Shown: piece by piece, positions 14,198 through 58,303 of the stretch
Layout: each line of letters begins with the position of its first letter
How positions within the stretch are numbered: position 1 is the stretch's first letter
Assembly (NCBI GenBank): GCA_002328075.1
Contig: DCVT01000044.1
Location: forward strand, 144,907-208,906
Length of the DNA stretch: 64,000 nt
Reading direction: 5' to 3'
DNA from: Anaerolineales bacterium UBA2181
GTDB taxonomy: Bacteria > Chloroflexota > Anaerolineae > Promineifilales > UBA4811
The notes under the pieces: model-generated
Seen by the model: only the letters and a program-made list of their open reading frames with translations
Database searches by the model: none
What the model was told of the DNA's origin: nothing
Translations under genes and position numbers: made by a program

Positions 14198-14411
14198 GGT
14201 CCAAAGCGCCTTGGCGCCGTTGCACCGCTTGTCGCACGTCCGTCAGACGGGTCAGCGGTTGCCCCTGGGATAACCAGTGAGCCGTTCAACTCTCCCGACC
14301 GAGATCCGTTCGCCAGCCTCACCCGCGCCGTCCGCTCTTGGCCGTCGTCGAGAGACCCGGTTCCGGCAGACCGTGGCTTCGAACTGGGGTCGTTTGCCAT
14401 TACGTTAGCTT

Positions 14412-17859: not shown

Positions 17860-18806
17860 GGCACCTCGATCGGTTCGTCCGGGGAAGCGGGGGGCAAGCC
17901 ACTCTTGAGGACCTGCCAGTATGCCGATACGCGCTGTTTGCGCAGTGAGGATTTGTGACCCACCAGCGCCTTGGCTGCTTCTATCCCTAACTGCCAGGCA
18001 TAATTGCCCAACAGGAACACCCGTAGCGCGGCCGCGGCGGCGCGGCCATGGTACGTGCGGAAATAGCGAAGCTTGCTCCGTTGGAAACAGATATGACGGC
18101 GTACCAGCACCTGCTCACTGCTCTTTCCCTCGTGGTGTACCACCTGAGCATCGGGGTAGTAGACCACCCGCCAACCAGCGTCCTTGATCCGGTGCTGCCA
18201 TTCCATCTCTTCCGAGTACATGAAATATCCGGGGTCCAGCGGACCCGTCTGCTCGTACGCCTCACGCCGTACCATGAGACAGGCCCCCACAACCCAATCC
18301 ACGTCCGCGGCAACGTCATCTGGATGGTCCAGGACATAGTAATGAGCCAGCAGCCGGCGGGGTGCCCACGATTGTATCCAGGTGCTCTCAAAGAACCCAG
18401 TAGCCAGGGTGGGAAAACGCCGCCGCGATGATTGCACCCTTCCGTCAGCATAACGCAACTGGGGACCCAAGGCGCCCACGCTCTGGTTCCGGTCAAGAAA
18501 TTCGACCATCTGGCTTAATGCGGCCCCCACTATCTCCGTGTCTGGGTTTAGCAGCAGCAGATAACGACCATCGGCCTTAGCGAGGCCGAGGTTGTTACCT
18601 CGGCTAAAACCGACGTTTTCATTCAGAGCCAGCGTACGCACCGCTGGGTAATCGGCCGCAACCATTTCCATGCTGCCATCACTGGAGCCGTTGTCCACCA
18701 CAATGACCTCCAGCGTCAGCGAACCGCGTCCGGAATGTACCGATTCCAGGCACTGCCGCAACAGAGGCCGGACGTTCCAGCTGACAACGATGATTGAAAG
18801 ATCCAA
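17856..18806 (-). CDS. GT2-family (GT-A fold) glycosyltransferase
   Basis: The ORF is open up to 18935, but that start would overlap the upstream gene by 92 nt. The in-frame TTG at 18806 gives MDLSIIVVSWN.., the usual GT2 N-terminus. Motifs: VIVVDNGSSDGS, NVGFSRGNN, LLLNPD, GACLMVRREAYEQTGPLDPGYFMYSEEMEW. The exact start is uncertain. Confidence 0.85.
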   Translation of the reverse strand: MDLSIIVVSWNVRPLLRQCLESVHSGRGSLTLEVIVVDNGSSDGSMEMVAADYPAVRTLALNENVGFSRGNNLGLAKADGRYLLLLNPDTEIVGAALSQMVEFLDRNQSVGALGPQLRYADGRVQSSRRRFPTLATGFFESTWIQSWAPRRLLAHYYVLDHPDDVAADVDWVVGACLMVRREAYEQTGPLDPGYFMYSEEMEWQHRIKDAGWRVVYYPDAQVVHHEGKSSEQVLVRRHICFQRSKLRYFRTYHGRAAAAALRVFLLGNYAWQLGIEAAKALVGHKSSLRKQRVSAYWQVLKSGLPPASPDEPIEVP

Positions 18807-18843
18807 AGCGCAGTGCAGCCGATCTCGCGCTCCGGGCTCCGAG

Positions 18844-19803
18844 CTACAAGCTGCGATGAACAGTGTACTCGGCCAGGTCGATGAGCGCTTGGCGACAAAC
18901 GTTGTCAGGCAGGTTTTCCAGGGCCTGCCGGGCAAGCTGGGAATGCCGCGCCGCTTCCTCCCTGACTCGATCCACGACGCCGGAGTCCCGTATAGCGTCC
19001 ACAGCCAGTCGGATAGGTGCGGCTCCCCGCTGGCCCTCCAGAACCGCCAAAATCCGCTGATCTCCTGGACTCTGCTCCAGGAAAAGAATCACCGGCAGAG
19101 TGACCAGACCCTGGGCCAGATCACTTCCCAAGGGCTTGCCCACTTGAGCCTCGCTGCCGGCAAAGTCCAATAGATCGTCCACTATTTGGAACGCCAGGCC
19201 CAATTCCGCACCATACTGGTGCAAATCAACCCTGATCTCCGGCGAGACCTGGGCCAGTACGCCAGCCGCCTCAGTTGCCAGTACGAAAAGCGAGGCGGTT
19301 TTGGCAGAGATGCGCTGCAAGTAGCTTTCCCGGTCAACAGCATGATGTTGAGTGGCGAACATCTGCTGCAACTCGCCGTTGCAGATATTCATCAGCGCCT
19401 GCGAAAAAAGCCGCATCACCGCCACGTTTTCGGTCTGAGAGGCGAGATCGGCCGCCCGGGCAAAAAGATAGTCACCGGTGAGTATAGTAGCTCCAGGGCT
19501 CCAAGTCGCATTGAGCGTTGGATTGCCCCGCCGGATCAATGAACCATCTATGATATCGTCATGAACCAACGTGGCGGTGTGCAACATCTCAACGGCGGCT
19601 GCCAGGTTGACCGCTAGCCGGCAGTCCGCACCCAGCATTTGGCAGGTTAGGAGCGCTGTAACCGGTCGAATGCGCTTACCTCCGCTGCGAATGAGATGCA
19701 CAACCGCCCGGGTGACGACCTCGTGCTGGCGAGGGTCTTCCTCAAGCATCCGCGCTTCGACCAGAGCCAGTTCCTGTGCCACCAGTTCCAGTGATCTCTG
19801 CAT
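18844..19803 (-). CDS. trans-polyprenyl diphosphate synthase (medium/long-chain, IspB/HepT-like)
   Basis: Both aspartate-rich motifs are present: LHTATLVHDDIIDGSLIRRG and LAFQIVDDLLDF, plus GGKRIRP. Start is ATG 19803 or TTG 19809. Confidence 0.9.
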   Translation of the reverse strand: MQRSLELVAQELALVEARMLEEDPRQHEVVTRAVVHLIRSGGKRIRPVTALLTCQMLGADCRLAVNLAAAVEMLHTATLVHDDIIDGSLIRRGNPTLNATWSPGATILTGDYLFARAADLASQTENVAVMRLFSQALMNICNGELQQMFATQHHAVDRESYLQRISAKTASLFVLATEAAGVLAQVSPEIRVDLHQYGAELGLAFQIVDDLLDFAGSEAQVGKPLGSDLAQGLVTLPVILFLEQSPGDQRILAVLEGQRGAAPIRLAVDAIRDSGVVDRVREEAARHSQLARQALENLPDNVCRQALIDLAEYTVHRSL

Positions 19804-20596
19804 GTTCAAGCGTCTTACCTATCTTCGTAAAGAGCTCCAATACGTTCTCTGTTGTTTGCCGGCCCACCTCAGCCGGCGACAAGCCGCGCAGATTCGCCAC
19901 CCGCTCCGTTACGTACCGCACGTAGGCCGGTTGGTTGCGTCGACCGCGGTGCGGCGCAGGTGTCAAATAGGGTGCATCCGTTTCAACCAGCAACCGGTCC
20001 AGCGGAATCTGTTTGGCCACCTCCTGTAGCCCGATGGCGCCAGGAAACGTGACCGGGCCGCTCAGGCCGACATAGAACTGCAGGTCCAGAACGGCCGCCA
20101 GATACTCGGTGCCGCCGGCGTATGAGTGCAGCACGCCGCGGCCATGGCCATCATCGTCGGTCCACTGGGTCAGGAGCGTCATCGTCTCCTCAGTGGCGTC
20201 CCGATTGTGAACGATAACCGGCAGCGCCAACTCGGCTGCCAACTCCAATTGTGCCGCAAAAGCACGACGCTGAGCATCGGCCGGCGAGAGGTTGCGGAAA
20301 AAGTCGAGGCCGATCTCGCCGACCGCCACCACCCTTGGATGGCAGGCCAGCCGGCGCAACTCAAGGAGTGTTTTCCGGTCAAGACTCTCAGCATGGTGAG
20401 GATGGACCCCAACGGCCGCCACGACCGACGAGTGTCTCTCCGCCAACGCCACCGCCGCCTGACTGCTTTCCAGATCAACACCCGGATTTACTATCGCTAT
20501 GACGCCCACCTCTTCGGCCGCCGCAATGACGCCGTCTCGATCCCGGGCAAAAGCCGGCATGTCCAAATGGCAGTGGGAGTCAATCAACCTGATCAC
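19742..20596 (-). CDS. tatD: TatD-family metal-dependent hydrolase/DNase
   Basis: [16 protein letters not shown]..., [29 protein letters not shown] and [10 protein letters not shown] give the TatD His/Glu/Asp metal-ligand pattern. The GTG start overlaps the upstream stop (GTGA). The 3' tail overlaps the next gene by about 62 nt. Confidence 0.85.
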
Positions 20597-22020
20597 GCCT
20601 GGGTGAGGCCTGCAAGGCGCATCCCATCTCGAAGGATAGCCTGCACCTTATTCTCATGGGTGGTCTCACAGTACACGCGGATGATGGGTTCGGTGCCGGA
20701 AAACCGGACCAGCATCCAGCCGCCATCTTCCATCAGAAATTGGTGCCCATCGACCGTGACCAGACCGGTGACCGCCAGGCCGCCCAAGGTGGCAGGCCGG
20801 GCCGCATTCACGCGGTTCAGGATCGCATCACGCTCCTCGGCCGGGAATTGGCTGTCGATCCGGTCGTAGTAATGAGGACCCACCCTGGAAAACAGCAGCT
20901 CGATGAGCTCTGAGGGCCGTTTGCCCAGCCGCACCATCATGTCCAACAAGTACAAACCGGCCAAAATGCCGTCGCGCTCGGGCACGTGACCACGGAAGGC
21001 GTACCCGCCGCTCTCTTCACCTCCCAGCAGTGCGCCCGTTTCGGTGAACTTGGGTGCAACATACTTGAAACCGACGCCGGTCTCGATGATGGGAACCCCA
21101 TACTGCTGCCCCAGGATGTTAAGCATCTTGGTGCTTGAGATGGTTTTGACGATCGCGCCACGCTCGCCACGCACCTCCAGGAAATAGTACCCGAGCAGCG
21201 CATAGACTCGCAGCTGGTCCACGAATCGGCCGTGCTCATCTCCCAGCCCGACCCGATCGGCGTCACCATCGTTGATGATGATTACATCAGCTCCCAACTC
21301 ACGTCCCCGAGCGAGAGCCGGGTCCACGTTGGGCGGGATAGGTTCGGGCCGGAGCATATCCGGAAACAGCGGATGACGCTGGTTGTGAATTTCTATGATC
21401 TCAGTCCTGCCCCCACCCAGAATACGCGGGAACCAGCCGATGCCGTTGCCCCACATGCAGTCAACCAGTATCCGCAGGCCGGCCTCTTTGATTGGCCGGA
21501 CATCGATCAGCAGTTCCAGTTGGGCAAGATAATCGGGATTGGGGTCCCAGTACCGGACAAGACCCTGCTCGATGCCAGTGGAGAGGTTCAACCGCTTCAC
21601 CTGGTCAATATCTGGGATCAGGGCTTCTATACGGGTGAGATCCGCAGGAGCAACGGCACCTCCGGTAGCATCCCGCACCTTGAAACCGTTGTCCGTGTTG
21701 GGGTTATGGCTGGCGGTGATGTTCACCGCGCCGGCGGCGGCCTTGGCCACGACCGAGTACGAGATGACCGGCGTTGGCGACGCGCCCTCTATAAGCCAAA
21801 CCGGGATTCCGTTTCCGGCCATCACCTCGGCCGCGGCCGCGCCAAAGTCCTCGCCGCGGTAGCGTTGATCGTGTCCTATGACAATGCCCCGCTGCGCTCC
21901 GCCGCACTCGAGCAGATAGGAGGCAAACCCCTGTGCACAACGTCGGACATTATCAAAGGTATAGTCCTCACCGACTGAACCCCGCCAGCCGTCTGTTCCA
22001 AACTGGATCTTGGCACCCAT
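20593..22020 (-). CDS. alpha-D-phosphohexomutase (phosphomannomutase/phosphoglucomutase)
   Basis: FGTDGWRG, phosphoserine loop [14 protein letters not shown], Mg loop [10 protein letters not shown] and sugar loop [10 protein letters not shown]. Confidence 0.9.
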
Positions 22021-22046
22021 CTGGTCTCCTCGTTTTCCAGTGCCGG

Positions 22047-23060
<1,014 letters not shown>

Positions 23061-34792: not shown

Positions 34793-35584
34793 TCAGACAA
34801 TTGCAGCCATCCAGTCGCGGATGGCACCCAAATACTGGCTCATGCCTACGGCCAGCAGGTCGTTGTGACCAGCCTCAGCAACCACCAGCAACCGTTTGCG
34901 CACGGCGCCGCACCGCTCATAGAGCGCGCGGCCGTCCACAACCGGAACAAGCCGGTCTTCCTCGCCGTGGATCACCAATGTTGGCGCGTTAACCCGGCTT
35001 ATCTTGCCCAGGTTGTCAAAGCCGTCACGCGCCTCATCAAACCCGGCCATACGCACCCCCATGCGGGTTAACAGGCCGCCCGTGTCGGCAAATCCGGACT
35101 CGATAATCAGTCCATCCAGGTTCTCCGTGACCTGGCAGGCTACCTGGATGGCAGCCGCACTGCCCAGCGAGCGACCCATCACCACCTGCCGCGTCGGTTC
35201 CAAACCGTGCTCCCGGGCCACCGCGCCGGTCGCCTTGAACGCCAGAACCGCATCGCCAAGCAGCGTCCGGGCGCCAGGCTGCCCGCCACTCCGGCCGTAT
35301 CCGCGAAAGTCCATCACCAGCAAGGTGACGTCCAACCAGGTGAACAGTGGGGCCAGCTCGTCGTAATCGGCCGCAATTTCGCCGTTGCCGTGAAAAAACA
35401 CCAGCAACGGCGCATTGGGGCTGGCGGGAAACAGCCGGCCGCCCACGGTCACGCCCGGTGCCACCTCCACCGCCACCAGGCGGACTCCCTTTCCAGGCTC
35501 AACCCACCCACCTGCCTCGGGTCGGGGGCGAAAAAGGGCTCGCAGAACGTGTGGTGCTTCCAGCCGTTCCAGAGGGTTTTCCAC
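34793..35584 (-). CDS. alpha/beta-fold hydrolase
   Basis: 263 aa. Contains LLVFFHGNGE, the nucleophile elbow VVMGRSLGSAAAI (G-x-S-x-G), PTLVIHGEEDRLVP and a C-terminal GHND (His). Confidence 0.75.
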   Translation of the reverse strand: MENPLERLEAPHVLRALFRPRPEAGGWVEPGKGVRLVAVEVAPGVTVGGRLFPASPNAPLLVFFHGNGEIAADYDELAPLFTWLDVTLLVMDFRGYGRSGGQPGARTLLGDAVLAFKATGAVAREHGLEPTRQVVMGRSLGSAAAIQVACQVTENLDGLIIESGFADTGGLLTRMGVRMAGFDEARDGFDNLGKISRVNAPTLVIHGEEDRLVPVVDGRALYERCGAVRKRLLVVAEAGHNDLLAVGMSQYLGAIRDWMAAIV

Positions 35585-35666: not shown

Positions 35667-37055
35667 TTACCCGAAATGCGCCGCCAATCGGTCCTGGAGC
35701 GCCTTCTCCTCGCGATACGCTGGACTGTCCAGCAGCTCTTGCACCGCGCCGGCCGTTCGCTGAGTAGCCGGCCAGTGCTCCTCGGCCGCCATCCGCAACA
35801 GCAATCGGGCCGCCAGAGCAGCCGCCTCACGCATGTCGGCCAGGTCCACTTTGTCCACCGTGTCGTATTGGGTGTGGCCGTAGCCTCGACCCTCGAGCGA
35901 CCGGCCAGCCGACTGAATCCCACCGGTGGGTACGCCGGCCAGGAAGAACGGATAGTGATCTGAATGGGCGTTGACCGACTGCCCCACCTCAAATGTGGCC
36001 GCCATCTCTTCGCGCCACCGCTCAAAGAGCGGTTCCAGAACCGGCCACTCGTTCAGGACCAGGTCGCGCCGCATGTCGCGGGCACCGGCGGCATCCATGT
36101 TGAGGTAGAACCGGATTGTCGGCAGGTCGACGGCATGGGCCGCCGCATACGCTTGCGAACCCAAAAGACCAATCTCCTCGACCCCCCACAAGGCAAAGCG
36201 CACGGTGCAGCGCAGCGGCGGGGCGTGGGAAGCCAGCACTCTCGCTGCCTCCAGCAGGGCGGCCACGCCAGAGGCGGGGTCACCCGCTCCCTGCGAGATG
36301 TCGTGCCCATCATAGTGGCACCCCACCAACACAGAGCGCTCTGGTTCCTCCCGGCCGGGGAGGTCACCCAAGACGTTCCACGACGTCTTGGGTTGGCTGC
36401 TGTCGGTGGTAGTGAGGCGGAATTGGATCTGGCCATGCTGCTTGGCCAATCGCCTAATGGCAGCGCCGTCTTCATAACAGACCGCGACACCCGGGATAGG
36501 CGCCAACTGATTTCGCCCGATGCTGCCGGTGGCTGGACCGTAGGCGGGGTAATGGTTGACAAAGATGAAACCGGTCGCCCCGGCCAACAGACTACGGCCG
36601 TACTTTTCGTTGCGGTGGATCCAGCGGTTGGCCCCCTTGGGGTTGACGACGCTGGTGGTCATAACGATGTTACCATGGATCTCCTCCGCCCGCAGATCAA
36701 AATCCTCCGGCGCACCATCGCCCATATCCACCAGTCGGCCAGTCAGCTCTCCAGCCGGCGAGTGTGGCAGGCTGATGCATGGGATGTTGCGTTCCACGGG
36801 GCTGACCACCTCTAGCCGGGCATCTCCCCGTATCCAAGCCTTGAAAGGCACCGGTTCCAGGCGGACGTTGCGCAGTCCGTACCCCTGCATCTTTTCCACC
36901 ATCCACTGCGCCGCCTGGCGTTCACCCTCGGTGCCGCCGAACCGGGAGCCAAAACGGTCGCACAGGACAATCAAGTTGTCCATCGCTTCCATGCTTGTGT
37001 ACAGATCACCGACGATTCTGCTGTCTAGTTCGGAATACGGATTCGTGTGGTCCAC
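35667..37055 (-). CDS. M28-family metallopeptidase (aminopeptidase) with PA-like insert
   Basis: The ORF opens at TTG 37130. GTG 37055 has AGGAG 5 nt upstream. Metal and catalytic motifs: GCHYDGHD, GAGDPASGVAALLE, ALWGVEEIGLLGSQAY, LNMDAAG, HSDHYPF. Confidence 0.8.
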   Translation of the reverse strand: MDHTNPYSELDSRIVGDLYTSMEAMDNLIVLCDRFGSRFGGTEGERQAAQWMVEKMQGYGLRNVRLEPVPFKAWIRGDARLEVVSPVERNIPCISLPHSPAGELTGRLVDMGDGAPEDFDLRAEEIHGNIVMTTSVVNPKGANRWIHRNEKYGRSLLAGATGFIFVNHYPAYGPATGSIGRNQLAPIPGVAVCYEDGAAIRRLAKQHGQIQFRLTTTDSSQPKTSWNVLGDLPGREEPERSVLVGCHYDGHDISQGAGDPASGVAALLEAARVLASHAPPLRCTVRFALWGVEEIGLLGSQAYAAAHAVDLPTIRFYLNMDAAGARDMRRDLVLNEWPVLEPLFERWREEMAATFEVGQSVNAHSDHYPFFLAGVPTGGIQSAGRSLEGRGYGHTQYDTVDKVDLADMREAAALAARLLLRMAAEEHWPATQRTAGAVQELLDSPAYREEKALQDRLAAHFG

Positions 37056-37384: not shown

Positions 37385-38449
37385 TCAATCCATTCCGTAT
37401 CGCGTCAGGGCCTCATCCAGGATCATGTTTACCAGTTCTGCGTGACCGATACCGGCCGCGTTGGCCTCCAGGACCAGGTCGCTGATGCCCGGCGCCAGTC
37501 CGGGCAAGGGGTTGACCTCCAGGATGTACGGTCTGTCACCATCGGATGCATCCAGCCGAAAGTCGACGCGCGCCACATCCAGGCAACCGGTGACCCGAAA
37601 CGTCGCCGCCGCCAACCAGTTCAGGTCCTCCACCAGCCCCGGAGATAGCGGCGCCGGGCAAAAGTACGCCAATTGGTCGGCCAGGACAGTCTTGGCCCGG
37701 TTGGTGTACACGCCGCCCTCCTCATGGCTGTACTCACCCAGGCTGATCTCCAGTGGTGGCAGAAAGCGCAGGCCACGGATAATGCGGGGCGCGTCTTCGT
37801 CATCCGGCAGACGTCGCGCCACCGGTGGAACCAGGTTACCCACCAGGCCAACGGTGATATCCCGTCCGTCGATGAACCTCTCCACCAACACAGGCTCATC
37901 GTACGCCTCCAACATCTGTGTCACCTGCTCCCGCAGCTCGGCTGCGTTATGAACGACGGATTGGGCGCTGATGCCGATGCCGGTACCTTCCCGGCTTGGC
38001 TTGACAAACAGGGGAAAGGTCAACGCCGGATCCAGGGGCTCATCGATCCGTTCAAAGGTCTGAAAAGCCGGTGTCGGCAGGTCATGGTAAGCCAGGACAC
38101 GTTTGGTCATCGGCTTGTCCAGGGTCACGGCCAACGCCAGCACCTTCGAACCGGTGTACGGGATGCGCAACATCTCCAGCATCGCTGGCACGTGCGATTC
38201 CCGACTGTCACCCCAGTGACCCTCACAGATGTTAAAGCAGATGTCCGGTCTGACCTCTCGCAGGCGGTCATACAAGGTGACATCCCCCTCCAGAAAAGTA
38301 ACCCGGTGTTCGCGTTGGCGCAGGGCGTCGGCGATAGCCTCGATGGTACTTGACGAATCCAGGTCGGCCCAATAGTCCGTCGGCATGCCGGGCACTTGGG
38401 GTGCGTTTTTCTTGAGGTTAGCCAGCAATGCGATGTGCAGCAAAGCCAT
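37385..38449 (-). CDS. ATP-grasp ligase of the D-alanine--D-alanine ligase family
   Basis: The ORF opens at 38533. ATG 38449 is preceded by GAGGAGAAAAGGA and starts MALLHIALLANLKKNAP.... It shows an ATP-grasp layout: LDKPMTKRVLAYHDLPTPAF, LFVKPSREGTGIGIS, VLVERFIDGRDITVGLVG, RVDFRLD...PYILEVNPLPGL. The start lies 32 nt inside the 3' end of kamA. Confidence 0.8.
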   Translation of the reverse strand: MALLHIALLANLKKNAPQVPGMPTDYWADLDSSSTIEAIADALRQREHRVTFLEGDVTLYDRLREVRPDICFNICEGHWGDSRESHVPAMLEMLRIPYTGSKVLALAVTLDKPMTKRVLAYHDLPTPAFQTFERIDEPLDPALTFPLFVKPSREGTGIGISAQSVVHNAAELREQVTQMLEAYDEPVLVERFIDGRDITVGLVGNLVPPVARRLPDDEDAPRIIRGLRFLPPLEISLGEYSHEEGGVYTNRAKTVLADQLAYFCPAPLSPGLVEDLNWLAAATFRVTGCLDVARVDFRLDASDGDRPYILEVNPLPGLAPGISDLVLEANAAGIGHAELVNMILDEALTRYGMD

Positions 38450-39839
38450 TCCTTTTCTCCTCAACTGGCTGGTCAGCCGTGAGACCCAAACCTTGCCAGC
38501 GAGCGGGAGCCGGTCGCCGGTGGCTCTTGTCATATCCCTCTGGCGCCATCGCCAGACGGCTACCCGACAGGAGGGCGGCGACCCCTTCCTGCCCCGCTTC
38601 GTCCTGTCGACGTTGGCAGGCTGAGCAGGTGGCAGGGTCGTGCGGCCGATAGTCGGTCGGCTGGGTGTAGGTGGTGATGAGCCCTTCGAAATTGCGCACC
38701 ACGACGCGTTGTTCCGACTGACTGATCAGGTATTGGGGCATTACCGGAACCTTGCCGCCTCCCCCGGGCGCGTCCACCACAAACGTTGGAACGGCAAAAC
38801 CCGACGTGTGGCCCCGCAGTGATTCGATGATTTCGATCCCCTTGGCTACGGGCGTTCGAAAATGGCCTGCCCCTGCCACCAGGTCACACTGATAGAGGTA
38901 GTAGGGCCGGACGCGGATTTTGACCAGTTCGTGAACCAGCTCTTTCATGATGTTGGGGCAGTCATTGACACCCGCCAAGAGCACGGATTGGCACCCCAAC
39001 GGTATGCCGGCATCCGCCAACATGCCAACCGCCCGCTTGACCTCCGGAGTGATCTCCTTGGGGTGGTTCACATGCACGTTCATCCAAAGTGGATGGTAGC
39101 GCCGGAGCATAGCTACCAGGCCTTCGTCCACCCTTTGGGGCAGGAAAACCGGCACTCGCGATCCAATCCGCAGCACCTCAACGTGGGGTATAGCCCTAAG
39201 CCGGCGGAGCAGGTGTTCCAGCATGGCCTGGGGTAACATGAGAGGATCACCGCCCGAGAGCAGCACATCGCGGATGGCCGGTGTCTGGGCGATATAGTCA
39301 ATCTGGGCGTCATAGTCCGCCCGGCTGAATTGGGCCTGGCACGTTCCGACAATCCGGCTGCGAGTGCAATAGCGGCAATAGCTGGCACATTGGGTCGTGA
39401 CCAGCATCAAGACCCGATCCGGGTAACGATGAACCAGCCCCGGTACCGGCGAATGTGCTTCTTCCCCCAACGAGTCCGCCATACCCGCCTCGAAATGGGT
39501 CAGTTCCTCGCCGGTTGGTATGACCTGACGACGGATCGGGCAGTTTGGGTCGTCCGGGTCCATCAATGAGGCAAAGTATGGGGTGATGTCGAGGCGGAAC
39601 CGCTGTTGTGCGTTGACGCCGGCCCGTTCTTCGGGCGTCAAGCGGATGATCTTCTGCAGTTCGTCGAAGGTGTTGAGGCGGTGGCTGAGTTGCCAGCGCC
39701 AGTCATTCCACTGGGCATGGGGAATGTCGGCCCAGACCTGAGGTCTGGGCGTACTTGGGGGAGGCTCCTCCGGTTCGGCGATTTCCAGTTCGCCCAGGAG
39801 TTCCTGACCAAAAGAGTCAAGACGAGCACGATGGTCCAT
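38418..39839 (-). CDS. kamA: L-lysine 2,3-aminomutase (radical SAM, KamA/AblA family)
   Basis: Near full-length colinearity with Clostridium LAM as I remember it: WNDWRWQL, SPVPGLVHRYPDRVLMLVTTQCASYCRYCTRSR (CxxxCxxC), VLLSGGDPLML, HVNHPKEIT, SVLLAGVNDC, RVRPYYLYQCDLVAGAGHFRTPV, VPTFVVDAPGGGGK. The acidic residues in GVND and QCDL, associated with binding the lysine epsilon-amine, are both present. This argues for lysine rather than glutamate aminomutase. Start chosen at ATG 39839 (MDHRAR...); the ORF is open to 39929. Confidence 0.9.
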   Translation of the reverse strand: MDHRARLDSFGQELLGELEIAEPEEPPPSTPRPQVWADIPHAQWNDWRWQLSHRLNTFDELQKIIRLTPEERAGVNAQQRFRLDITPYFASLMDPDDPNCPIRRQVIPTGEELTHFEAGMADSLGEEAHSPVPGLVHRYPDRVLMLVTTQCASYCRYCTRSRIVGTCQAQFSRADYDAQIDYIAQTPAIRDVLLSGGDPLMLPQAMLEHLLRRLRAIPHVEVLRIGSRVPVFLPQRVDEGLVAMLRRYHPLWMNVHVNHPKEITPEVKRAVGMLADAGIPLGCQSVLLAGVNDCPNIMKELVHELVKIRVRPYYLYQCDLVAGAGHFRTPVAKGIEIIESLRGHTSGFAVPTFVVDAPGGGGKVPVMPQYLISQSEQRVVVRNFEGLITTYTQPTDYRPHDPATCSACQRRQDEAGQEGVAALLSGSRLAMAPEGYDKSHRRPAPARWQGLGLTADQPVEEKRNGFAAHRIAG

Positions 39840-40112
39840 CTCGGTCTGTTTCCGTTCCTCTCTTACTCCAAACGTTAACAATAACCCGGGACGGCCTTTG
39901 GGTCGGCACAGGGCCCACCAGTCTGCCATCCCGTATCACGACGATCCTGTCCGGCGATTCCCCAGCCCCGGTTGCTCACCGACCGGCACCCCGTGCCAGC
40001 CCTGGTCGCGCGAACACGACTTTAGGATTCGGCACTCGTGAGGCATCCGGCTATCGGTCAGCCGACTGTGGTGTCTGAGGTTCCCGCCCGTTCACACTAA
40101 TCAATGACCTCA

Positions 40113-40140
40113 ATAATAACAGATTCTACGCAATTGTCAG
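40113..40140 (-). promoter_or_regulatory. sigma70-like promoter upstream of kamA
   Basis: The minus strand reads CTGACA-N16-TATTAT (-35 at 40140..40135, -10 at 40118..40113). It sits in the only AT-rich patch of the 39930-40174 gap, about 270 nt upstream of the kamA ATG. Confidence 0.35.
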
Positions 40141-40174
40141 GGGTATGTTGCTCCTTTTTTGGGTCAAATCCACA

Positions 40175-41092
40175 CTACTCTACCGGTGGCTCCTGCTGCA
40201 GCTGGTGACGGCCCGCTGACCATAAACCGGCGCCCACGATCAGGCTGCCTCCCAACAGGTGCGCCGGACCAATCGGTTCGCGCAGCAACAAGTACCCGAG
40301 CAGCGCGCCGTAAAGCGGCAGCGTGTTGTAGAACACCATGGCTCCGCTGGCTCCCAGGCGCCGGATGCCGGCATTCCAGGAGAGAAAGCCCACCACGGTA
40401 GGCACCAGCCCGATGTACATCACCGCCAAACCCAGCACAGGTCTAAAAGCCAGGCCGTGAACCTTCAGCTCGCAGGTCGCGCCAAGAAGCAGCATGGGCA
40501 GCCCCAGGAACGCGGAAAACGCGGTGGCCGAAAGCGCCGACCGGCCGAGCATGACCCGACGCGCGAGGACCGAATACAGGCTCCACAAGAGCACTGCAAT
40601 CAGCGCAATCAGGTCGCCGGGGTTGACTTGACCGCCCGGTTGCCCGCTTGAGGCGCCGGCTGAAACCAGCACTCCGACACCCGCCAGGGCCACCACCGCG
40701 CCCACCACCTGGCGGCGCGTCATCGGCTCCCGTATGAGCCAACCGGCCAAGAGCCCGGTCATCAGCGGTGCCAAACCGTTGATCAACGTAGCGTTCACCA
40801 GGCTGGTGTAACGGAGCGCCAGGTAGAGAGTGGGTCCAAAAACCGCCACGCCCAGGAGACCCATGCCGACCAAACACCAACGGTCCGCGCCTAAACGCCG
40901 ATCAACCGTCGGCTGTCCCCGCAGCAGCATCACAAAGCAGAGCGACGCGATGACAAATCGGGCAGCCGCAAGGGTGATGGGGCCGATGTCGTCGCGCAGC
41001 CAGCGACCCAACAGCATGTTGGTCGACCACGAGAGGGTCGCCAGGTTCACCAGGCCAATTCCAGCCAGTTGGCTGGTACGAAACCTCTGCAC
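40175..41092 (-). CDS. DMT-superfamily (EamA-type) transporter
   Basis: 305 aa with ten hydrophobic helices arranged as two similar halves (LVNLATLSWSTNMLLGRWL... / ...LLWSLYSVLARRV...), typical of EamA repeats. Confidence 0.85.
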   Translation of the reverse strand: MQRFRTSQLAGIGLVNLATLSWSTNMLLGRWLRDDIGPITLAAARFVIASLCFVMLLRGQPTVDRRLGADRWCLVGMGLLGVAVFGPTLYLALRYTSLVNATLINGLAPLMTGLLAGWLIREPMTRRQVVGAVVALAGVGVLVSAGASSGQPGGQVNPGDLIALIAVLLWSLYSVLARRVMLGRSALSATAFSAFLGLPMLLLGATCELKVHGLAFRPVLGLAVMYIGLVPTVVGFLSWNAGIRRLGASGAMVFYNTLPLYGALLGYLLLREPIGPAHLLGGSLIVGAGLWSAGRHQLQQEPPVE

Positions 41093-41103
41093 CCCTTGTC
41101 AGT

Positions 41104-42168
41104 TCACCAGCGGGCGTGGTGCTCTTCGGCAAATCCGACCAGGCCTTCCAGCCGGATCTGCTCGCCGTCGTCCGCCAAAACCGTGCCGTGGTACCGGCCA
41201 AACAGCTGGTGCACCTCGCTGGTGATGAGCAGTAGATTGGCAGCCGCCACCCGCTCCAGAAACGGGACAAATTCCAGTTGCACCCGGCCGTCGGGCGAGG
41301 CCATCTTCCATGGCTTCCGAAAATCCCTAGGGTCGTAGGTGAAATCAACCTGGGCCAGCTTGTGAACCCGGCCGTCGAGAATCAGCGCGTTCTCCGTGGC
41401 GGCCGACGTGTCGCCGAAACCAAATCCCAGGTTCAGCCCGAGAGACCGCCCATCAGCCGCCCGACCGCTGGCGCTGGCCCACACCCAGAAAGAGCGATAG
41501 GGCCACACCCCCCGGCCCCAGTCCAGGTTGCCCAGGCTCTCGGCAGGCTGCACCGGGTAGCGCTCCTCGCCGTAGGTCATCCACCCTTCGGCCGGAATGC
41601 AGTTCACCTTGCGGTTGTGATAGAACCGCTTGCCGGCGATGGGAATCACAATGGTCATCGATTCATGCTCCGGTGGCAACGCCAGGCGAAGTTCGGCTGC
41701 CAAACCGCGGCCGTGAAAGCCGGGCCAGGCGACCGAAACAACCCGGGCGTCCGTATCCGCTCGAAACGACAACCGGTGTTTCCCGTCGTCAAAGCAACTC
41801 TCGCCCCGTTCGCTGTTGCGAGGCAGTTGGATGCCCCGGCTGAACGGGAGGGTCAGGGTCTCCTCGTGATACCAACCAGAGTGAAAGTCCAGCAGGTAGA
41901 TGAAAGCCTGCCCGGCGTAGCCCAGATCCGCCAGCGTCACGGAAAAGTAGTGGGAAGGCGTGGTGAGCCCGTAATAGTCCCACCGCTTGATGCGCAGACG
42001 CTGCCAGGGACGGAACCAGCAAAAAGCCGCCTGCTCCAGATTGCAGTCCAGCACCGGTTGGCGCGCCCAACCCACCTGAACCAGGTTGCCGTTGGTGTCC
42101 AGCAAAGCCGAGGGTTGGGTCAATTCACGTTGTCCCAGATCGTTTCCGCTCACGGTCCATCCTTTCAC
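41104..42168 (-). CDS. DUF2804-family protein (function unknown)
   Basis: 354 aa, soluble and beta-rich. The N-terminal pattern ...GWARQP..DCNLEQA...RLRIKRWDYYGLTT..YFSVTLADLGYAG matches my memory of DUF2804. Not verified by search. Confidence 0.6.
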   Translation of the reverse strand: MKGWTVSGNDLGQRELTQPSALLDTNGNLVQVGWARQPVLDCNLEQAAFCWFRPWQRLRIKRWDYYGLTTPSHYFSVTLADLGYAGQAFIYLLDFHSGWYHEETLTLPFSRGIQLPRNSERGESCFDDGKHRLSFRADTDARVVSVAWPGFHGRGLAAELRLALPPEHESMTIVIPIAGKRFYHNRKVNCIPAEGWMTYGEERYPVQPAESLGNLDWGRGVWPYRSFWVWASASGRAADGRSLGLNLGFGFGDTSAATENALILDGRVHKLAQVDFTYDPRDFRKPWKMASPDGRVQLEFVPFLERVAAANLLLITSEVHQLFGRYHGTVLADDGEQIRLEGLVGFAEEHHARW

Positions 42169-42180
42169 GTTGCGAGCAGG

Positions 42181-43809
42181 TCACCGACGGAGCACCCGCC
42201 CGCACCTGCCGTTCTGCTCCACCTTGCCATCTCGGGCCACGACCCGCCCGGATATCAGGACAGCGTGAATACCGCTGGGAGGCGCGTCGGGCCGATCCGG
42301 CGTCGTGTGGTCGGCCACCGTTTCTGGATCGAACAGCACCAGGTCCGCCCAGTGGCCAGTCGCAACCCCGCCCATGTCAGCCAGTCCCAGCCGGGCGGCC
42401 GGCCAGGAGGTCATCCGCCGCACCGCTTCTTCCAGCGTGAAAAGACCCAGCTCGCGAGAGTAACGCCCCAACACCCGCGGGAACGTGCCGAATGACGCCG
42501 GATTGTGCACCCCCTGATCGGTGAGGATGGTGTCGGTCATGAACGCGCAGAGCGGGTGAGCCAGTACTGCCCGCAACGGCTCTTCGCGGGCACCGTCGCC
42601 CGAATAGGTTCCCAGGAGCACGCGAGCGCGCCCCTGACTGGCGCGGGCCACATGCATGTAGGCCTCAAAGGGCGGTTGCCTCAGACGGCGGCCGATGGCT
42701 GCGAAATCCAACCCCTCCAGCTCGGCGAGTTCCGGCCGGCGGGCCCACAACAGCGTAATGTCCCGATAGTCCAGTCCAAGCCCCAGGCGCAACACATCCA
42801 TCTCTCGTTTCAGCCGGCGCAGCGAACCGGGATCGTCCACCTGGCGCTCGAAATCGTCCAGAAACCAGTCTGGAAAGACCACATTTATCGTGGAATTGCC
42901 CACAGTGTAGGGAAAGGCATCCATGGCCACGTCTACCCCGCTGGCAGCGGCCGTTTCGATCTCGCGCAGCACCGCCCGGTGGGTCCGCCATGTCCGCCGT
43001 CCGACAAAGATCTGATGCGATAGCTGCAGTTTGACGCCGCTCGCACGCGCCAGCCCCAGCAACTCGCGCACCGACCGTAGGTTGTGAGCAGTGCCACCGA
43101 TCATCGGCCGATACAGCGGCGAGACCCAACTGTAGGCCCGGCCGTGCACCGCAAACAGGGCGGCTCGGTCAGCGACCACCCGCAGCAAGCTGAGCAGTTC
43201 TGGGTTGCCGGCAAAGACGCCGGGGGCATAAGCGAGACCCGCCGAGAATCCCCAGGCGCCTCCCTCCAACGCTTGGCCGACCTGCAGCGCCATCGCGGCC
43301 AACTCTCGTTCGGTCGGTGTGCCTGAGCGCCGGCCCATCGCCAGGTAGCGCAGTGTGCCGTGTCCTACCAGCAAAGCTGTGTTCAAGAGCACCCCCTGGC
43401 TCTCCAGCACGTCCAGGAAATCGGACATGGTCCGCCACGTATAAGCGAAAGCTCTCTCCCGCAACATCTCGGAGAACCCGTCCAGCAGCGGAGCCACCTC
43501 CTCGGTTGCTGGAGCGGGCGAAAATCCGCATTGGCCCGCGACCACAGTGGTGATCCCCTGCATAACCAACGGCGTCAGGATTTCATCGTGATCCGCCAGG
43601 GGGAGAATCCAGTCGCTGTGCGAGTGGACATCCACGAAACCGGGAGCCACCACCAAACCGGTGGCGTCCAGCTCCGTCCGGCCGGCCAGCGGCTGGTCCC
43701 GCGAAATGGCAACGATCCGCCCCTTTTCTATCCCCAGATGGGCGCGATAGCGGGGCGCGCCCGTGCCGTCGACCACCAACCCATTGTTGACAACCAGTTC
43801 GAATTCCAT
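42181..43809 (-). CDS. N-acyl-D-amino-acid deacylase (D-aminoacylase, amidohydrolase family)
   Basis: The ORF opens at 44124 inside dinB. ATG 43809 (GAGGAGGG upstream) gives MEFELVVNNGLVVDGTGAPRYRAHLGIEKGRIVAIS...APGFVDVHSHSD, the canonical D-aminoacylase N-terminus and HxH metal motif. C-terminal part: FMTD...G.HNP..FGTFPRVLGRY. Confidence 0.8.
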   Translation of the reverse strand: MEFELVVNNGLVVDGTGAPRYRAHLGIEKGRIVAISRDQPLAGRTELDATGLVVAPGFVDVHSHSDWILPLADHDEILTPLVMQGITTVVAGQCGFSPAPATEEVAPLLDGFSEMLRERAFAYTWRTMSDFLDVLESQGVLLNTALLVGHGTLRYLAMGRRSGTPTERELAAMALQVGQALEGGAWGFSAGLAYAPGVFAGNPELLSLLRVVADRAALFAVHGRAYSWVSPLYRPMIGGTAHNLRSVRELLGLARASGVKLQLSHQIFVGRRTWRTHRAVLREIETAAASGVDVAMDAFPYTVGNSTINVVFPDWFLDDFERQVDDPGSLRRLKREMDVLRLGLGLDYRDITLLWARRPELAELEGLDFAAIGRRLRQPPFEAYMHVARASQGRARVLLGTYSGDGAREEPLRAVLAHPLCAFMTDTILTDQGVHNPASFGTFPRVLGRYSRELGLFTLEEAVRRMTSWPAARLGLADMGGVATGHWADLVLFDPETVADHTTPDRPDAPPSGIHAVLISGRVVARDGKVEQNGRCGRVLRR

Positions 43810-55101: not shown

Positions 55102-55126
55102 ATTTCGGTTGAAAACAAGGAGTAAC

Positions 55127-58100
55127 ATGAAGAAGCGATTTCCTGCATATACCCTGTTTCTTTGCCTGGCTGTCTGCCTTGCGGCCTGTGGAACACCAAC
55201 GGCCACGCCTCAGCCTGACGCTTTGACCACACCGGCAGCGTCGGCGCCCGCCGCGGTTGAGCCAGGGTCGGCAACAACCGCCACCCAGTTGCCAGCAGTC
55301 GGGCCGGTGGCGGTCGGCGAGCCCATCTACCTGGCCATCATCTGGCACCAGCACCAGCCGCTCTACTTTCGGGATCCGGTCACCAGGATCTACCAAAAAC
55401 CATGGGTCCGTGTCCACGCTGCCAAGGATTATGTGGACATGGCGGCGATCCTGGAGCAGCACCCGGGCATCCAGGTGACTTTCAACCTGACTCCTTCGCT
55501 GTTGCGGCAGCTGCTGGACCTAGAAAACGGAGCCACCGACCTCTACTGGGTACACACAGAGGTGCCGGCCGACGAGTTGACTGAGGAGCAACAGGCATTT
55601 ATCCTCAGTCGCTTTTTTGACATCAACCCCAAGATCATCGCCCGGTTCGCGCGTTATCAAGAGATCGCAGGTGATCGCGAGAACAGCTCAAACTGGGATG
55701 TCCAGACCTGGCGCGACCTGCAGGTGCTCTTCAACCTGGGGTGGACCGACCCCGACTGGCTGGCGGCCGAGCCGCTGGCAACCGTGATGGCCAAGGGCAA
55801 GAACTGGACCGAGGAGGACAAGCAGATTGTCTTGCAGGAACACGCGCGGTTGGTCGCCGAGGTCATTCCGCTTCATCAGCGGCTGCAGGATGAGGGCACC
55901 ATCGAGGTGACCACGACACCCTTTTTCCACCCCATCCTGCCGCTGTTGTTGGACAGCAACCTGGCCAACGTGGCAGTTCCTGATATTGACCTGCCCCCGC
56001 GGTTTACCTATGGCTTTGACGCGGTGGAGCAAATCCGCCTGGGCGTCGAGTTCTATCAGCAACAATTCGGCCGAGCGCCACTGGGTATGTGGCCGGCCGA
56101 AGGCGCAGTTGCCCAGGGAATCGTCGGAATGGTCGCCCGCGCCGGAATTCAGTGGATGGCCAGTGACGAGGAGGTCTTGGCGCGCAGCCTTGGCATGAGC
56201 ACGTTTACCCGCAACAGCCAGGACACCGTCCAACAGCCAGATGCCCTGTATCGGCCGTACATTGTCAAGAGCCGGGACGACCAGATGTATATTGTCTTTC
56301 GTGACAAAGTGATCAGCGACAAGGTGGGATTCACCTACAGCGGCTCGAGCGGCGCAACAGCGGGTCAGGATTTTGTCCAGCGCATCCTGGCCATTCGCGA
56401 AAGTTTGCAGGCTTCTGGTGCCGCGGGACCGCACCTCGTCAGCGTGATCCTGGACGGTGAAAACGCATGGGAGCACTATCCTAACGACGGCAAGGAGTTC
56501 TTGCACACCATGTACCGGCTGCTGGCGGACGAACAGGACAAGGGAACCATCCAAACCATCACTCCCAGCGCATTCGTCTCCCAGTTCCCGGATCAGCCCC
56601 AAATCGACGAATTGTGGGCCGGAAGCTGGGTCAGCCCTGACTATCTGACCTGGATCGGCGAGGAGGAGGAAAACCGAGCCTGGGATTACCTATATCAGGT
56701 CCGCAACATGGTGGAGCGCAAGAAACACACGCTGTCGGAGGAGACCCTGGCAGCGGTGATGGATGCCATCTATACAGCGGAAGGCAGTGACTGGTTCTGG
56801 TGGTACGGCGCAGACCAGAACAGCGGGGATGACGCCAGTTTTGATCTTCAGTTCCGCCTGACGCTTCAGCGGGTGTACGAACACATGAACGAGCCGATAC
56901 CGAGCTTTCTCAAGGTGCCGGTGATCCCTCAGACCGCCCAACCCCCGGCCGCCGGTGCCTCGGCTCTCATCTCGCCACAGATCGATGGTAAGGCAGACGA
57001 AGGCGAGTGGGCGGGCGCGGGTTACTATCTGGAGGAAGGTGGCGTGCAGGCCACTCCTTCTCAGGTTGTTTCCCAACTCTGGTACGGGTTCGATCAGCAG
57101 AACCTCTTCCTCAGGCTCGACGCACGGCGGCCCTGGAACGACATTGGAGCCGAGACCCGCGTCGGATTCTACCTGACCCGCCCGGGTGGTGGCAACGAGC
57201 AGCCCTTCAGCCGGATAGGCGGCGACGAGACATTGCTCGGCTTCCTGGCCCACGCGCTGTTGGAGGTGACCGTCACCCGTGACGGACTCGATGCGACGCT
57301 GTACCGCGTTGACGAAACCGGTCGTTATGCCCTTCAGAGCAGTGACCTGCCGGTTGGCGTGGCGGCTAGCACGATGGAGGTGGCCTTGCCCTATGCCGAG
57401 TTTGGCAAACCGGACGCGGGCGATACCTTTAGACTGCGGACGGTTATCAGCGAAGCGGAACAGCGAGACATACAGGTTGTACCCGCCGTCGGTCCGGGCG
57501 CATTGGTCGTGCCCGACCTGGGTTTGACCACGCCCATCCTCACCGTTGCCGACCCAGAAAGGGACGATCACGGACCTGGAAGCTACGAGTATCCCAGCGA
57601 CGGGGTCTTTGCCGCCCGCGCCTATGACCTGGTGGAATTTGCTGTGGCCGAAGACGACAACAATCTGATCTTTCGGTTCACGTTTGCCGGCCCGCTTAAC
57701 AACAGCTGGGGAGCACCCAATGGGATGGGCATTCACACCCTGGACGTCTATGTCGACGCAGCCCCTGGCGGTGAGCGCAAATTACTACCCGGCCGCAACG
57801 CGGCATTGGCAGAGAGCGATGGTTGGGAGTTTGCCATCTGGGCGGAAGGCTGGACGCCAGGGCTTTATGGTCCCCCCACATTGGATGTGCCCAAACCGAT
57901 CCCGATAGGCGACGCCAGCACGCTCAACATCGTCAGCGACCCAGGCCAGAACAAAATCACCATACGGGTGCCCAAGGCGGCTCTGGCATCGGCGTTGGGT
58001 TCGACGGTTGATGCGCTTCGACCGGCCGAATGGGGTTATGTGGCTGCGGTCTTGGGTCAGGAGGGTTACCCGGCCAGCGGCGTCTGGCGGGTACGCGATG

Positions 58101-58303
58101 TGGAGCCAAGCGCGCAGCAATGGCGGTTTGGCGGAGCCCCAACCGATATCAATCATACGCGCATCATCGACCTGGCGTGGCCGGCCGACAAGGCCCCCAC
58201 CCAGGAAGAGATGTTGAGTACCTATCTGTCGGTTGCGCAAGGAGACATCGACGAAATCGGGCCCGATGACCTGGCACAGGTGAGCCTGATGCGGGTGCAG
58301 TAA
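55127..58303 (+). CDS. GH57-family alpha-glucan-active lipoprotein (amylopullulanase/alpha-amylase-like) with glucodextranase-C-like C-terminal domain
   Basis: ATG 55127 (AAGGAG upstream) gives the lipoprotein signal MKKRFPAYTLFLCLAVCLAAC. GH57 conserved regions: LAIIWHQHQPLY, MWPAEGAV (nucleophile Glu region), VILDGENAWEHY (acid/base Asp region). The C-terminal ADPERDDHGPGSYEYPSDGVFAARAYDLVEFAV...WGAPNGMGIHTLDVYVD resembles the glucodextranase C-terminal module. Confidence 0.85.
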   Translation: MKKRFPAYTLFLCLAVCLAACGTPTATPQPDALTTPAASAPAAVEPGSATTATQLPAVGPVAVGEPIYLAIIWHQHQPLYFRDPVTRIYQKPWVRVHAAKDYVDMAAILEQHPGIQVTFNLTPSLLRQLLDLENGATDLYWVHTEVPADELTEEQQAFILSRFFDINPKIIARFARYQEIAGDRENSSNWDVQTWRDLQVLFNLGWTDPDWLAAEPLATVMAKGKNWTEEDKQIVLQEHARLVAEVIPLHQRLQDEGTIEVTTTPFFHPILPLLLDSNLANVAVPDIDLPPRFTYGFDAVEQIRLGVEFYQQQFGRAPLGMWPAEGAVAQGIVGMVARAGIQWMASDEEVLARSLGMSTFTRNSQDTVQQPDALYRPYIVKSRDDQMYIVFRDKVISDKVGFTYSGSSGATAGQDFVQRILAIRESLQASGAAGPHLVSVILDGENAWEHYPNDGKEFLHTMYRLLADEQDKGTIQTITPSAFVSQFPDQPQIDELWAGSWVSPDYLTWIGEEEENRAWDYLYQVRNMVERKKHTLSEETLAAVMDAIYTAEGSDWFWWYGADQNSGDDASFDLQFRLTLQRVYEHMNEPIPSFLKVPVIPQTAQPPAAGASALISPQIDGKADEGEWAGAGYYLEEGGVQATPSQVVSQLWYGFDQQNLFLRLDARRPWNDIGAETRVGFYLTRPGGGNEQPFSRIGGDETLLGFLAHALLEVTVTRDGLDATLYRVDETGRYALQSSDLPVGVAASTMEVALPYAEFGKPDAGDTFRLRTVISEAEQRDIQVVPAVGPGALVVPDLGLTTPILTVADPERDDHGPGSYEYPSDGVFAARAYDLVEFAVAEDDNNLIFRFTFAGPLNNSWGAPNGMGIHTLDVYVDAAPGGERKLLPGRNAALAESDGWEFAIWAEGWTPGLYGPPTLDVPKPIPIGDASTLNIVSDPGQNKITIRVPKAALASALGSTVDALRPAEWGYVAAVLGQEGYPASGVWRVRDVEPSAQQWRFGGAPTDINHTRIIDLAWPADKAPTQEEMLSTYLSVAQGDIDEIGPDDLAQVSLMRVQ

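Follow-up and report, generated by a model that had tools for sequence, protein, structure and literature searches.

A translationally coupled lysine 2,3-aminomutase and Ddl-like ATP-grasp ligase gene pair in Anaerolineales bacterium UBA2181, predicted to produce a beta-lysine amide

The DNA analyzed here, referred to as the window, is a 64,000-nucleotide (nt) stretch from Anaerolineales bacterium UBA2181 of the Chloroflexota (GenBank assembly GCA_002328075.1, contig DCVT01000044.1, positions 144,907 to 208,906 of the forward strand). Its minus strand carries kamA, encoding a predicted lysine 2,3-aminomutase, and the 3' end of this gene overlaps the start of a second gene, which encodes an ATP-grasp enzyme resembling the D-alanine-D-alanine (D-Ala-D-Ala) ligase Ddl. 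The features of the pair are listed below in window coordinates.

38418-39839, minus strand: kamA, lysine 2,3-aminomutase, 473 residues; radical S-adenosylmethionine (SAM) and pyridoxal phosphate (PLP)-dependent enzyme, predicted product (3S)-beta-lysine
37385-38449, minus strand: Ddl-like ATP-grasp amide ligase, 354 residues, ATG at 38449; predicted beta-lysine consumer
38418-38449, minus strand: 32-nt overlap between the kamA 3' end and the ligase start, read from the sequence; translational coupling
38462-38457, minus strand: Shine-Dalgarno sequence GAGGAG, 7 nt before the ligase ATG, read from the sequence

A sequence-only reading of this DNA had reported both gene positions, the ligase start 32 nt inside kamA and the ligase's own GAGGAG, and all were found as it had given them. 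The same two genes with the same overlap are present in independent gene calls from three public copies of the contig, and in two relatives (L006 and L170; related loci are denoted here by L numbers) the overlap is 4 nt. Within the overlap of the window pair the ligase is read in the +1 frame relative to kamA; homologues elsewhere are true fusions. The nearest database relatives of the pair come from named Anaerolineae or Chloroflexi metagenome-assembled genomes, and the database names of these proteins are generic.

The kamA product scores 563.9 bits against the NCBIfam model TIGR03820 (cut-off 525.4) and so passes the AblA/KamA equivalog, while it falls below the cut-offs of the glutamate, arginine and EpmB models. 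Its alignment to the Clostridium subterminale lysine 2,3-aminomutase 2A5H covers 410 residues (E = 4e-161), and C125/C129/C132, R134, D293, D330 and the PLP lysine K337 of 2A5H are all kept, as C151/C155/C158, R160, D319, D356 and K363 of the window protein. D293 and D330 are presumably the lysine-specificity residues that bind the epsilon-ammonium group of the substrate, and the numbering recovered here agrees with this; glutamate 2,3-aminomutase has Lys and Asn at the two positions. Both aspartates are retained in all 37 of the KamA-ligase fusions described below and in all but one of 108 aligned KamA proteins encoded at related loci. The sequence-only reading had noted the CxxxCxxC cluster, which is present, and had placed the two specificity aspartates in the motifs GVND and QCDL. 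The latter does hold D319, the counterpart of D293, but the aspartate of GVND corresponds to D267, which is not a specificity residue; the second specificity aspartate is D356, the counterpart of D330, in VVDAPGGGGK. As both are present, the conclusion drawn from the motifs stands. We assign kamA as encoding a true lysine 2,3-aminomutase, predicted to convert L-lysine to beta-lysine.

Beta-lysine has four established fates: acetylation to an osmolyte, fermentation, transfer to elongation factor P (EF-P) and incorporation into non-ribosomal antibiotics. Beta-lysylation of EF-P or another housekeeping protein, with the ATP-grasp enzyme in place of EpmA, would follow the logic of EpmB/EpmA, in which a KamA-family aminomutase feeds beta-lysine to a ligase that forms beta-lysyl amides on a protein. 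EpmB, however, is a separate subfamily, whose model the window KamA matches at 260.3 bits against a cut-off of 369.3, and EpmA is a lysyl-tRNA-synthetase paralogue that acts through an adenylate rather than an acyl phosphate. No efp gene and no EF-P or EpmA domain was found in any of the annotated neighborhoods, and the multiple ligase paralogues, GNAT acetyltransferases and two-component regulators at related loci are unlike a housekeeping modification. We regard this explanation as very improbable and rejected it. Lysine fermentation by a kamA-kamDE-kdd-kce-kal pathway was also rejected, as no beta-lysine 5,6-aminomutase or downstream gene was found in related loci or among the Pfam-annotated window genes scanned, which make up part of its open reading frames (ORFs).

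The second gene of the pair encodes a protein in which Pfam detects the Ddl C-terminal domain alone (Dala_Dala_lig_C, 1.5e-28). Forty Ddl-type NCBIfam models match it, all below cut-off (the top match, PRK01372, reaches 173.4 bits of a required 243), and no curated NCBIfam model covers its family. An AlphaFold2 model based on an alignment of 30 sequences is confident, with a predicted local distance difference test (pLDDT) score of 93.4, and the solved structures nearest to it are all Ddl enzymes, with 25-28% sequence identity and template modeling (TM) scores of about 0.75-0.87. In profile searches Ddl matches the ligase with E = 1e-54, and the L-amino-acid ligase BL00235 also matches, weakly. 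The protein is by these measures an ATP-grasp enzyme of the D-Ala-D-Ala ligase fold, the family to which the sequence-only reading had assigned it. Active-site residues were mapped by profile alignment to the Yersinia Ddl, which apparently shares the numbering of Escherichia coli DdlB (both have 306 residues); ligase residues are counted from Met1.

Ddl K144: ligase K150, kept
Ddl S150: ligase T156, conservative change
Ddl K215: ligase K253, kept
Ddl R255: ligase R294, kept
Ddl D257: ligase D296, kept
Ddl E270: ligase E311, kept
Ddl N272: ligase N313, kept
Ddl S281: ligase S323, kept
Ddl H63: ligase E76, changed
Ddl Y216: ligase T254, variable within the family, changed
Ddl L282: ligase D324, changed

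The ligase has in common with the Ddl/VanA family the three-domain ATP-grasp fold and the ATP, Mg and transition-state residues, and the equivalents of the ATP/Mg catalytic residues K144, K215, R255, D257, E270 and N272 are kept across the ligase family. It departs from Ddl in the three changed positions above, in a 2-residue insertion in the GEDG loop together with a new invariant arginine (R83), and in an insertion of ~40 residues in the omega-loop region. The GGxSxE region of Ddl, which includes E15, cannot be aligned and is replaced by NLK...D..[DE].DS..T. The signature of the ligase family comprises N73, E76, R83, E84, D291, S323 and D324. Since the acyl-phosphate machinery is intact and the D-Ala pockets are not, the protein appears to be a ligase with a different substrate. 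The replacement of neutral D-Ala pocket residues of Ddl by E76, D291 and D324 fits a cationic one, and from these changes we infer that the substrate differs from D-Ala and is probably cationic.

A cell-wall D-Ala-D-Ala ligase that lies by coincidence beside a kamA of another pathway would account for the fold, the catalytic residues and the automated annotation of the protein as 'D-alanine-D-alanine ligase'. It would have to be reconciled with scores below the cut-off of every matching Ddl-type model, with an altered D-Ala pocket and a replaced GGxSxE region, and with the absence of mur and fts genes, or any other cell-wall gene context, nearby. The conserved linkage and the fusions reported below are moreover incompatible with chance. 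A housekeeping Ddl was rejected, and we give the coincidence next to no credence.

Linkage of the two genes was measured from both sides. A scan of one genome per GTDB species with the ligase alignment as query returned 80 loci, nearly all from Chloroflexota, with a few from Spirochaetota and one from a proteobacterial or myxobacterial genome. Linkage was counted over the 74 species-level loci with enough upstream sequence (71 from the scan and three fetched earlier), and in 32 of these (43%) kamA lies directly upstream of the ligase gene on the same strand. Apart from kamA, none of the window genes recurs beside the ligase at the sensitivity of this analysis. In a neighbor-joining tree of the ligases every deep clade is kamA-linked, and the unlinked loci fall inside two crown Anaerolineae clades, mixed with linked ones; by this pattern linkage is ancestral and was lost secondarily. 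From the other side, metagenome contigs were scanned with the KamA alignment as query and binned by identity to the window KamA. At an identity of at least 67%, 11 of 12 loci have the ligase gene directly downstream of kamA, as do 3 of 8 at 65-66%; below 65% the ligase gene adjoins kamA in 4 of 48 loci (two downstream, two upstream). In the remaining loci kamA stands alone, and what comes after it is unrelated genes rather than one for an AblB-type acetyltransferase. The pair has no conserved companion gene that would supply a co-substrate.

Fusion proteins provide the second line of evidence. An exhaustive search of representative proteins and its follow-up recovered at least 37 distinct proteins of 644-944 residues that carry both KamA and ligase domains and share 39-79% mutual identity. 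They derive from Deltaproteobacteria, Candidatus Magnetoovum (Nitrospirota), Omnitrophota and an archaeon. Both domain orders occur, so that fusion arose at least twice. The signature of the window ligase is present in the fused ligase domains and missing from a neighboring paralogue. One deltaproteobacterial fusion has two further ligases after it, and the Magnetoovum fusion a ligase and a GNAT. Such fusions are classical Rosetta-stone evidence that KamA and the ligase act in one pathway. Many relatives of 560-730 residues (P0122, P0125, P0126, P0136 and others) are tandem double ATP-grasps with two Ddl-like domains.

The sequence-only reading had held that a lack of conserved linkage between the two genes would count against its proposal; the orthologue count, the tree and the fusions all show linkage. 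Taken together, the data identify kamA and the ligase gene as a dedicated, translationally coupled module, whose two genes are paired in Chloroflexota and Spirochaetota and joined to encode a single polypeptide in several other phyla. The functional coupling that this suggests, with KamA and the ligase in one pathway making a beta-lysine amide, is very probable in our judgment. The core proposal of joint beta-lysine amide synthesis had been made from the window alone, and comparative genomics now strongly supports it.

One fusion bears on what kind of amide this may be. P0279 (L089:7001-9835), of 944 residues, contains a Peptidase_S51 domain (cyanophycinase / dipeptidase E family), a ligase domain and a KamA domain, in that order. 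Upstream of it, with a 4-nt overlap, is a gene for a 440-residue protein weakly similar to adenylate-forming enzymes. Assembly or decoration of a cyanophycin-like polymer or of oligo-beta-lysine by the ligase, with turnover by a dedicated peptidase, would fit this protein, and would be in line with the weak sequence matches of the ligase to the ATP-grasp domain of cyanophycin synthetase and with the two or three ligase paralogues at several loci. The S51 domain, however, occurs in this single protein and at no other fetched locus, so that S51 was dropped as a general partner. The ligase also lacks the Mur-ligase-like second domain of the CphA type and has the size and architecture of Ddl. A polymer is in our view improbable.

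A different candidate partner was found at L080, where an ORF between a regulator gene and kamA matches the Pfam family Zn_ribbon_LysW (PF21344) at 2.8e-14. The mature part of this protein reads CPNC...CPSC...PLELDF and is followed by a Glu/Trp tail. A hidden Markov model (HMM) was built from seven such proteins and used to search six-frame segments of 169 loci and the window. LysW-like genes were found in 14 of ~101 loci with a ligase, and the 62 loci with kamA only had none (Fisher p = 8e-4). In 12 of the 14, no more than ~1 kb separates the gene from the module (binomial p = 2e-7). They stand beside kamA-linked ligases (L039, L080, L081, L093, L095, L098, L105 and L146) and beside ligases without a nearby kamA (L013, on both sides; L018; L025; and L019, as a tandem array). 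The tails are 14-47 residues long, with a net charge down to -34, and contain repeated [DE][DE]W[GDE][DE] motifs that resemble the EDWGE end of LysW. The L019 array (L019:6441-7415, minus strand) consists of three tandem LysW-like genes, one with two zinc-ribbon domains. Genes for a PAS-GAF histidine kinase and then a LuxR-type regulator come after it, and the array is oriented divergently from an unlinked ligase gene.

The only known function of LysW proteins is as carriers that an ATP-grasp ligase loads on the gamma-carboxylate of a glutamate. The simplest reading of the adjacency is thus that the Ddl-like ligase loads an amine, beta-lysine, onto the LysW-like tails, a kind of acceptor that the sequence-only reading had not considered. 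By the usual ATP-grasp chemistry, the ligase would phosphorylate a carboxylate with ATP to an acyl phosphate, which an amine would attack to give the amide. Beta-lysine would supply one side of this bond, most likely as the amine, and the preferred acceptor would be the C-terminus of a LysW-like acidic tail or Glu/Asp side chains within it. By analogy with the loading of LysW by LysX, beta-lysine would be carried or displayed on the tail and then processed or released. At richer loci this processing may involve ATP-grasp paralogues, a RimI-like acetyltransferase, and M28, histone deacetylase (HDAC)-like or S51 hydrolases. In the genome of the window, the carrier gene would lie outside the 64 kb. 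The LysW-like tail is our favored acceptor, though we hold this preference tentatively, at a little short of an even chance.

The likeness to LysW/LysX (ArgW/ArgX) lies in an ATP-grasp gene beside a LysW-family zinc ribbon with an acidic C-terminal region, at 14 related loci, and in the EDWGE-like motifs. Unlike LysX, the ligase here is of the Ddl type and not the RimK/LysX type; its partner is KamA, and the tails are long and repetitive. Neither LysZ, LysY, LysJ nor LysK domains were found in the examined neighborhoods. As the window has no LysW-like gene, it cannot itself be assigned to a LysW/LysX system, though the ligase family may work alike.

A further likeness comes from the string of genes downstream of the ligase at L032 (9322-15424, same strand), which encodes a response regulator, an N-formylglutamate-amidohydrolase-like protein, a MATCAP/DUF1704 carboxypeptidase, a GshB/RimK-like ATP-grasp enzyme, a double LysW-like protein, a YitT membrane protein and a further LysW-like protein. 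The LysW-like units of this string amount to three more copies. The string has the appearance of a write-and-erase system acting on the acidic tails of proteins, and its small acidic-tailed proteins, ATP-grasps and MATCAP-family carboxypeptidase recall the writing and erasing of tubulin tails by TTL/TTLL and MATCAP. This is an analogy only, drawn from one related locus, and it has no counterpart in the window. A more elaborate, protein-templated version of tail loading can be envisaged, in which several Glu/Asp side chains of a tail would be beta-lysylated to give multi-site amino-group carriers or a ribosomally encoded analogue of cyanophycin, with ATP-grasps, GNAT and M28, HDAC-like, S51 or MATCAP enzymes writing and erasing; we consider it unlikely.

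Several observations weigh against tail loading. A LysW-like gene is present at only about one in seven (~14%) of the related loci; none was found in the 64-kb window, by regular expression or by the HMM at E values up to 50, and none in the three fusion loci examined. The tails vary in their final residue (W, G, Q, Y, L, E, S, D, A or R), unlike the EDWGE end of LysW. The characterized enzymes nearest to the ligase have small molecules as substrates, while the known carrier-loading ligases (LysX) belong to the RimK type. With a median isoelectric point of 4.9, the ligase family is acidic overall, which suits a small cationic substrate over a poly-acidic tail, and amino-acid transporters flank the module in L170 and L171, as would suit a small-molecule substrate or product. 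In addition, the other 42 of the 74 ligase loci have no kamA within 8 kb.

Alternatively, the ligase may join beta-lysine to a common small metabolite, for instance Glu, Asp or another beta-lysine, giving a free dipeptide-like amide that would serve as a secreted metabolite, nitrogen store or compatible solute; the sequence-only reading had likewise suggested a beta-lysine amide such as a dipeptide, oligo-beta-lysine or an osmolyte. Under this explanation the extra ATP-grasp paralogues and the GNAT of richer loci would extend and cap the amide. In agreement with it, the profile matches to Ddl and BL00235 place the enzyme nearest to small-molecule ligases, the acidity of the enzyme fits, the smallest unit conserved comprises two genes or one fusion, and two-component regulators lie beside many loci. 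Known ATP-grasp enzymes of this kind, namely those of N-acetylglutaminylglutamine amide (NAGGN) synthesis (Ngg, a GNAT and an ATP-grasp), carnosine synthase, MfnD and BL00235, make small amides, sometimes with an acetyltransferase, that serve as osmolytes or cofactor parts; none of them, however, has beta-lysine as a substrate or a link to any radical SAM aminomutase.

The richer loci speak to the same question. In some Chloroflexota, two or three Ddl-like paralogues come after kamA together with a RimI-like GNAT, and seven loci (L092, L093, L101, L105, L112, L130 and L088) have kamA-grasp-grasp-GNAT operons, which favor a free product. The GNATs of related loci have only a weak RimI match and no match to the AblB model. 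Transporter genes adjoin the module at L170 (permease-kamA-ligase-permease) and L171 (permease-ligase-permease, kamA absent), both close relatives of the window ligase, and an Atg22-like member of the major facilitator superfamily lies near it at L014, L017 and L041; the window has an EamA transporter gene. Transporters, however, are common genes, and the recurrent cases come from two or three clades only. A free product also leaves unexplained the non-random adjacency of LysW-like genes, even at ligases without kamA, and the lack of a conserved gene for co-substrate supply is a further difficulty. We regard a free small product as a substantial possibility, though on balance we lean against it and continue to prefer the tail as acceptor.

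At L170 (1-12912), the permease-kamA-ligase-permease string comes after a block of genes for a CoA-transferase, a thiolase, a class-III aminotransferase, an AAT-family protein (PF03417) and an enolase-superfamily (MR_MLE) protein, and this context may be amino-acid catabolic. Response regulators and GAF histidine kinases are frequent neighbors of the module across the related loci. At L094 (7056-8084) and L096 (7408-8442) an HDAC-like amidohydrolase gene lies directly 3' of the ligase gene and is followed by an M28 peptidase gene on the opposite strand; the two enzymes are candidates for release or turnover. An ORF of ~370 residues, c11, found downstream of the ligase at four loci, was set aside as a partner; it has no Pfam match and is clade-restricted.

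Around the pair, the window contains the following further features.

40140-40113, minus strand: promoter-like site upstream of kamA, CTGACA, 16-nt spacer, TG-TATTAT; 10/12 consensus matches, a consensus match alone
35667-37055, minus strand: M28 peptidase (PF04389, 4.6e-38); possible, weakly supported accessory hydrolase
34793-35584, minus strand: alpha/beta hydrolase, downstream of the M28 peptidase
37217-37189, minus-strand direction: promoter-like site from a consensus scan

The M28 peptidase and alpha/beta hydrolase genes follow the pair on the same strand, as the sequence-only reading had said, and the promoter-like site at 37217-37189 agrees with its suggestion that they have a promoter of their own. 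Its proposal that they form the turnover side of the system fared less well. By tblastn, the M28, alpha/beta hydrolase, EamA, DUF2804 and amidohydrolase genes of the window do not recur in the 80 related genome loci. A more sensitive search placed an M28 gene beside the module in four loci (L080, L081, L094 and L096), with none in the other ~95, so that a role for M28 has weak support; the alpha/beta hydrolase never recurs with the pair. Neither a second ATP-grasp gene nor a GNAT gene of the type beside related modules was found in the window by tblastn.

Transcription from the promoter-like site upstream of kamA would give a leader of ~270 nt. The leader (39840-40112, minus strand) is predicted to fold somewhat more stably than shuffled sequence (z = -2.45), and its sequence is kept in no related locus. 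Rfam returned nothing at the gathering score across the window and nothing at E values up to 1 in 39780-40220. A riboswitch or other leader element was dropped on the lack of an Rfam match and of conservation in related loci.

Directly upstream of kamA (40175-43809, minus strand) are tightly spaced genes for an amidohydrolase (D-aminoacylase-like, PRK09061), a DUF2804 protein and the EamA transporter, with dinB before them; in other genomes this block does not accompany the kamA-ligase pair. Farther away, five large ORFs of 731-922 residues occupy 4241-16682 (minus strand), two with only a PMT_2-type membrane glycosyltransferase match and three with no Pfam match. They adjoin genes for a glycosyltransferase, a GDP-mannose dehydratase and a phosphomannomutase (16702-23051), and together these genes are probably a cell-envelope glycan cluster. 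At 55109-58303 (plus strand) is a gene for a 1064-residue protein with a GH57 domain and a C-terminal module that is glucodextranase-type and resembles surface-layer homology (SLH) domains, and just upstream of it is a gene for a propeller-repeat protein.

Among known systems, the closest in plan is AblA/AblB (KamA/YodP), in which KamA is likewise the first of a two-gene unit and its product is consumed at once by an amide-forming enzyme; the window KamA passes the AblA model. The second enzyme here is an ATP-dependent ATP-grasp, not an acetyl-CoA-dependent GNAT, and the GNATs of related loci are RimI-like. No description of the kamA/ligase pair was found in the open-access full text searched, the coverage of which does not include the 2009 amidoligase survey (Iyer et al.). 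Both superfamilies are well known and the chemistry is conventional, but none of the established beta-lysine routes combines the two, in keeping with the view of the sequence-only reading that this chemistry falls outside the known pathways.

If true, a conserved ATP-grasp route would be a fifth fate of beta-lysine, and its ligase a new amide-forming enzyme for beta-amino acids. Thousands of proteins that at present carry the name 'D-alanine-D-alanine ligase' or 'KamA family radical SAM protein' would also gain a functional assignment. Should the link to LysW-like proteins hold as well, carrier-protein metabolism would extend beyond lysine and arginine synthesis, with a new class of ligase and a new, multi-site acidic tail.

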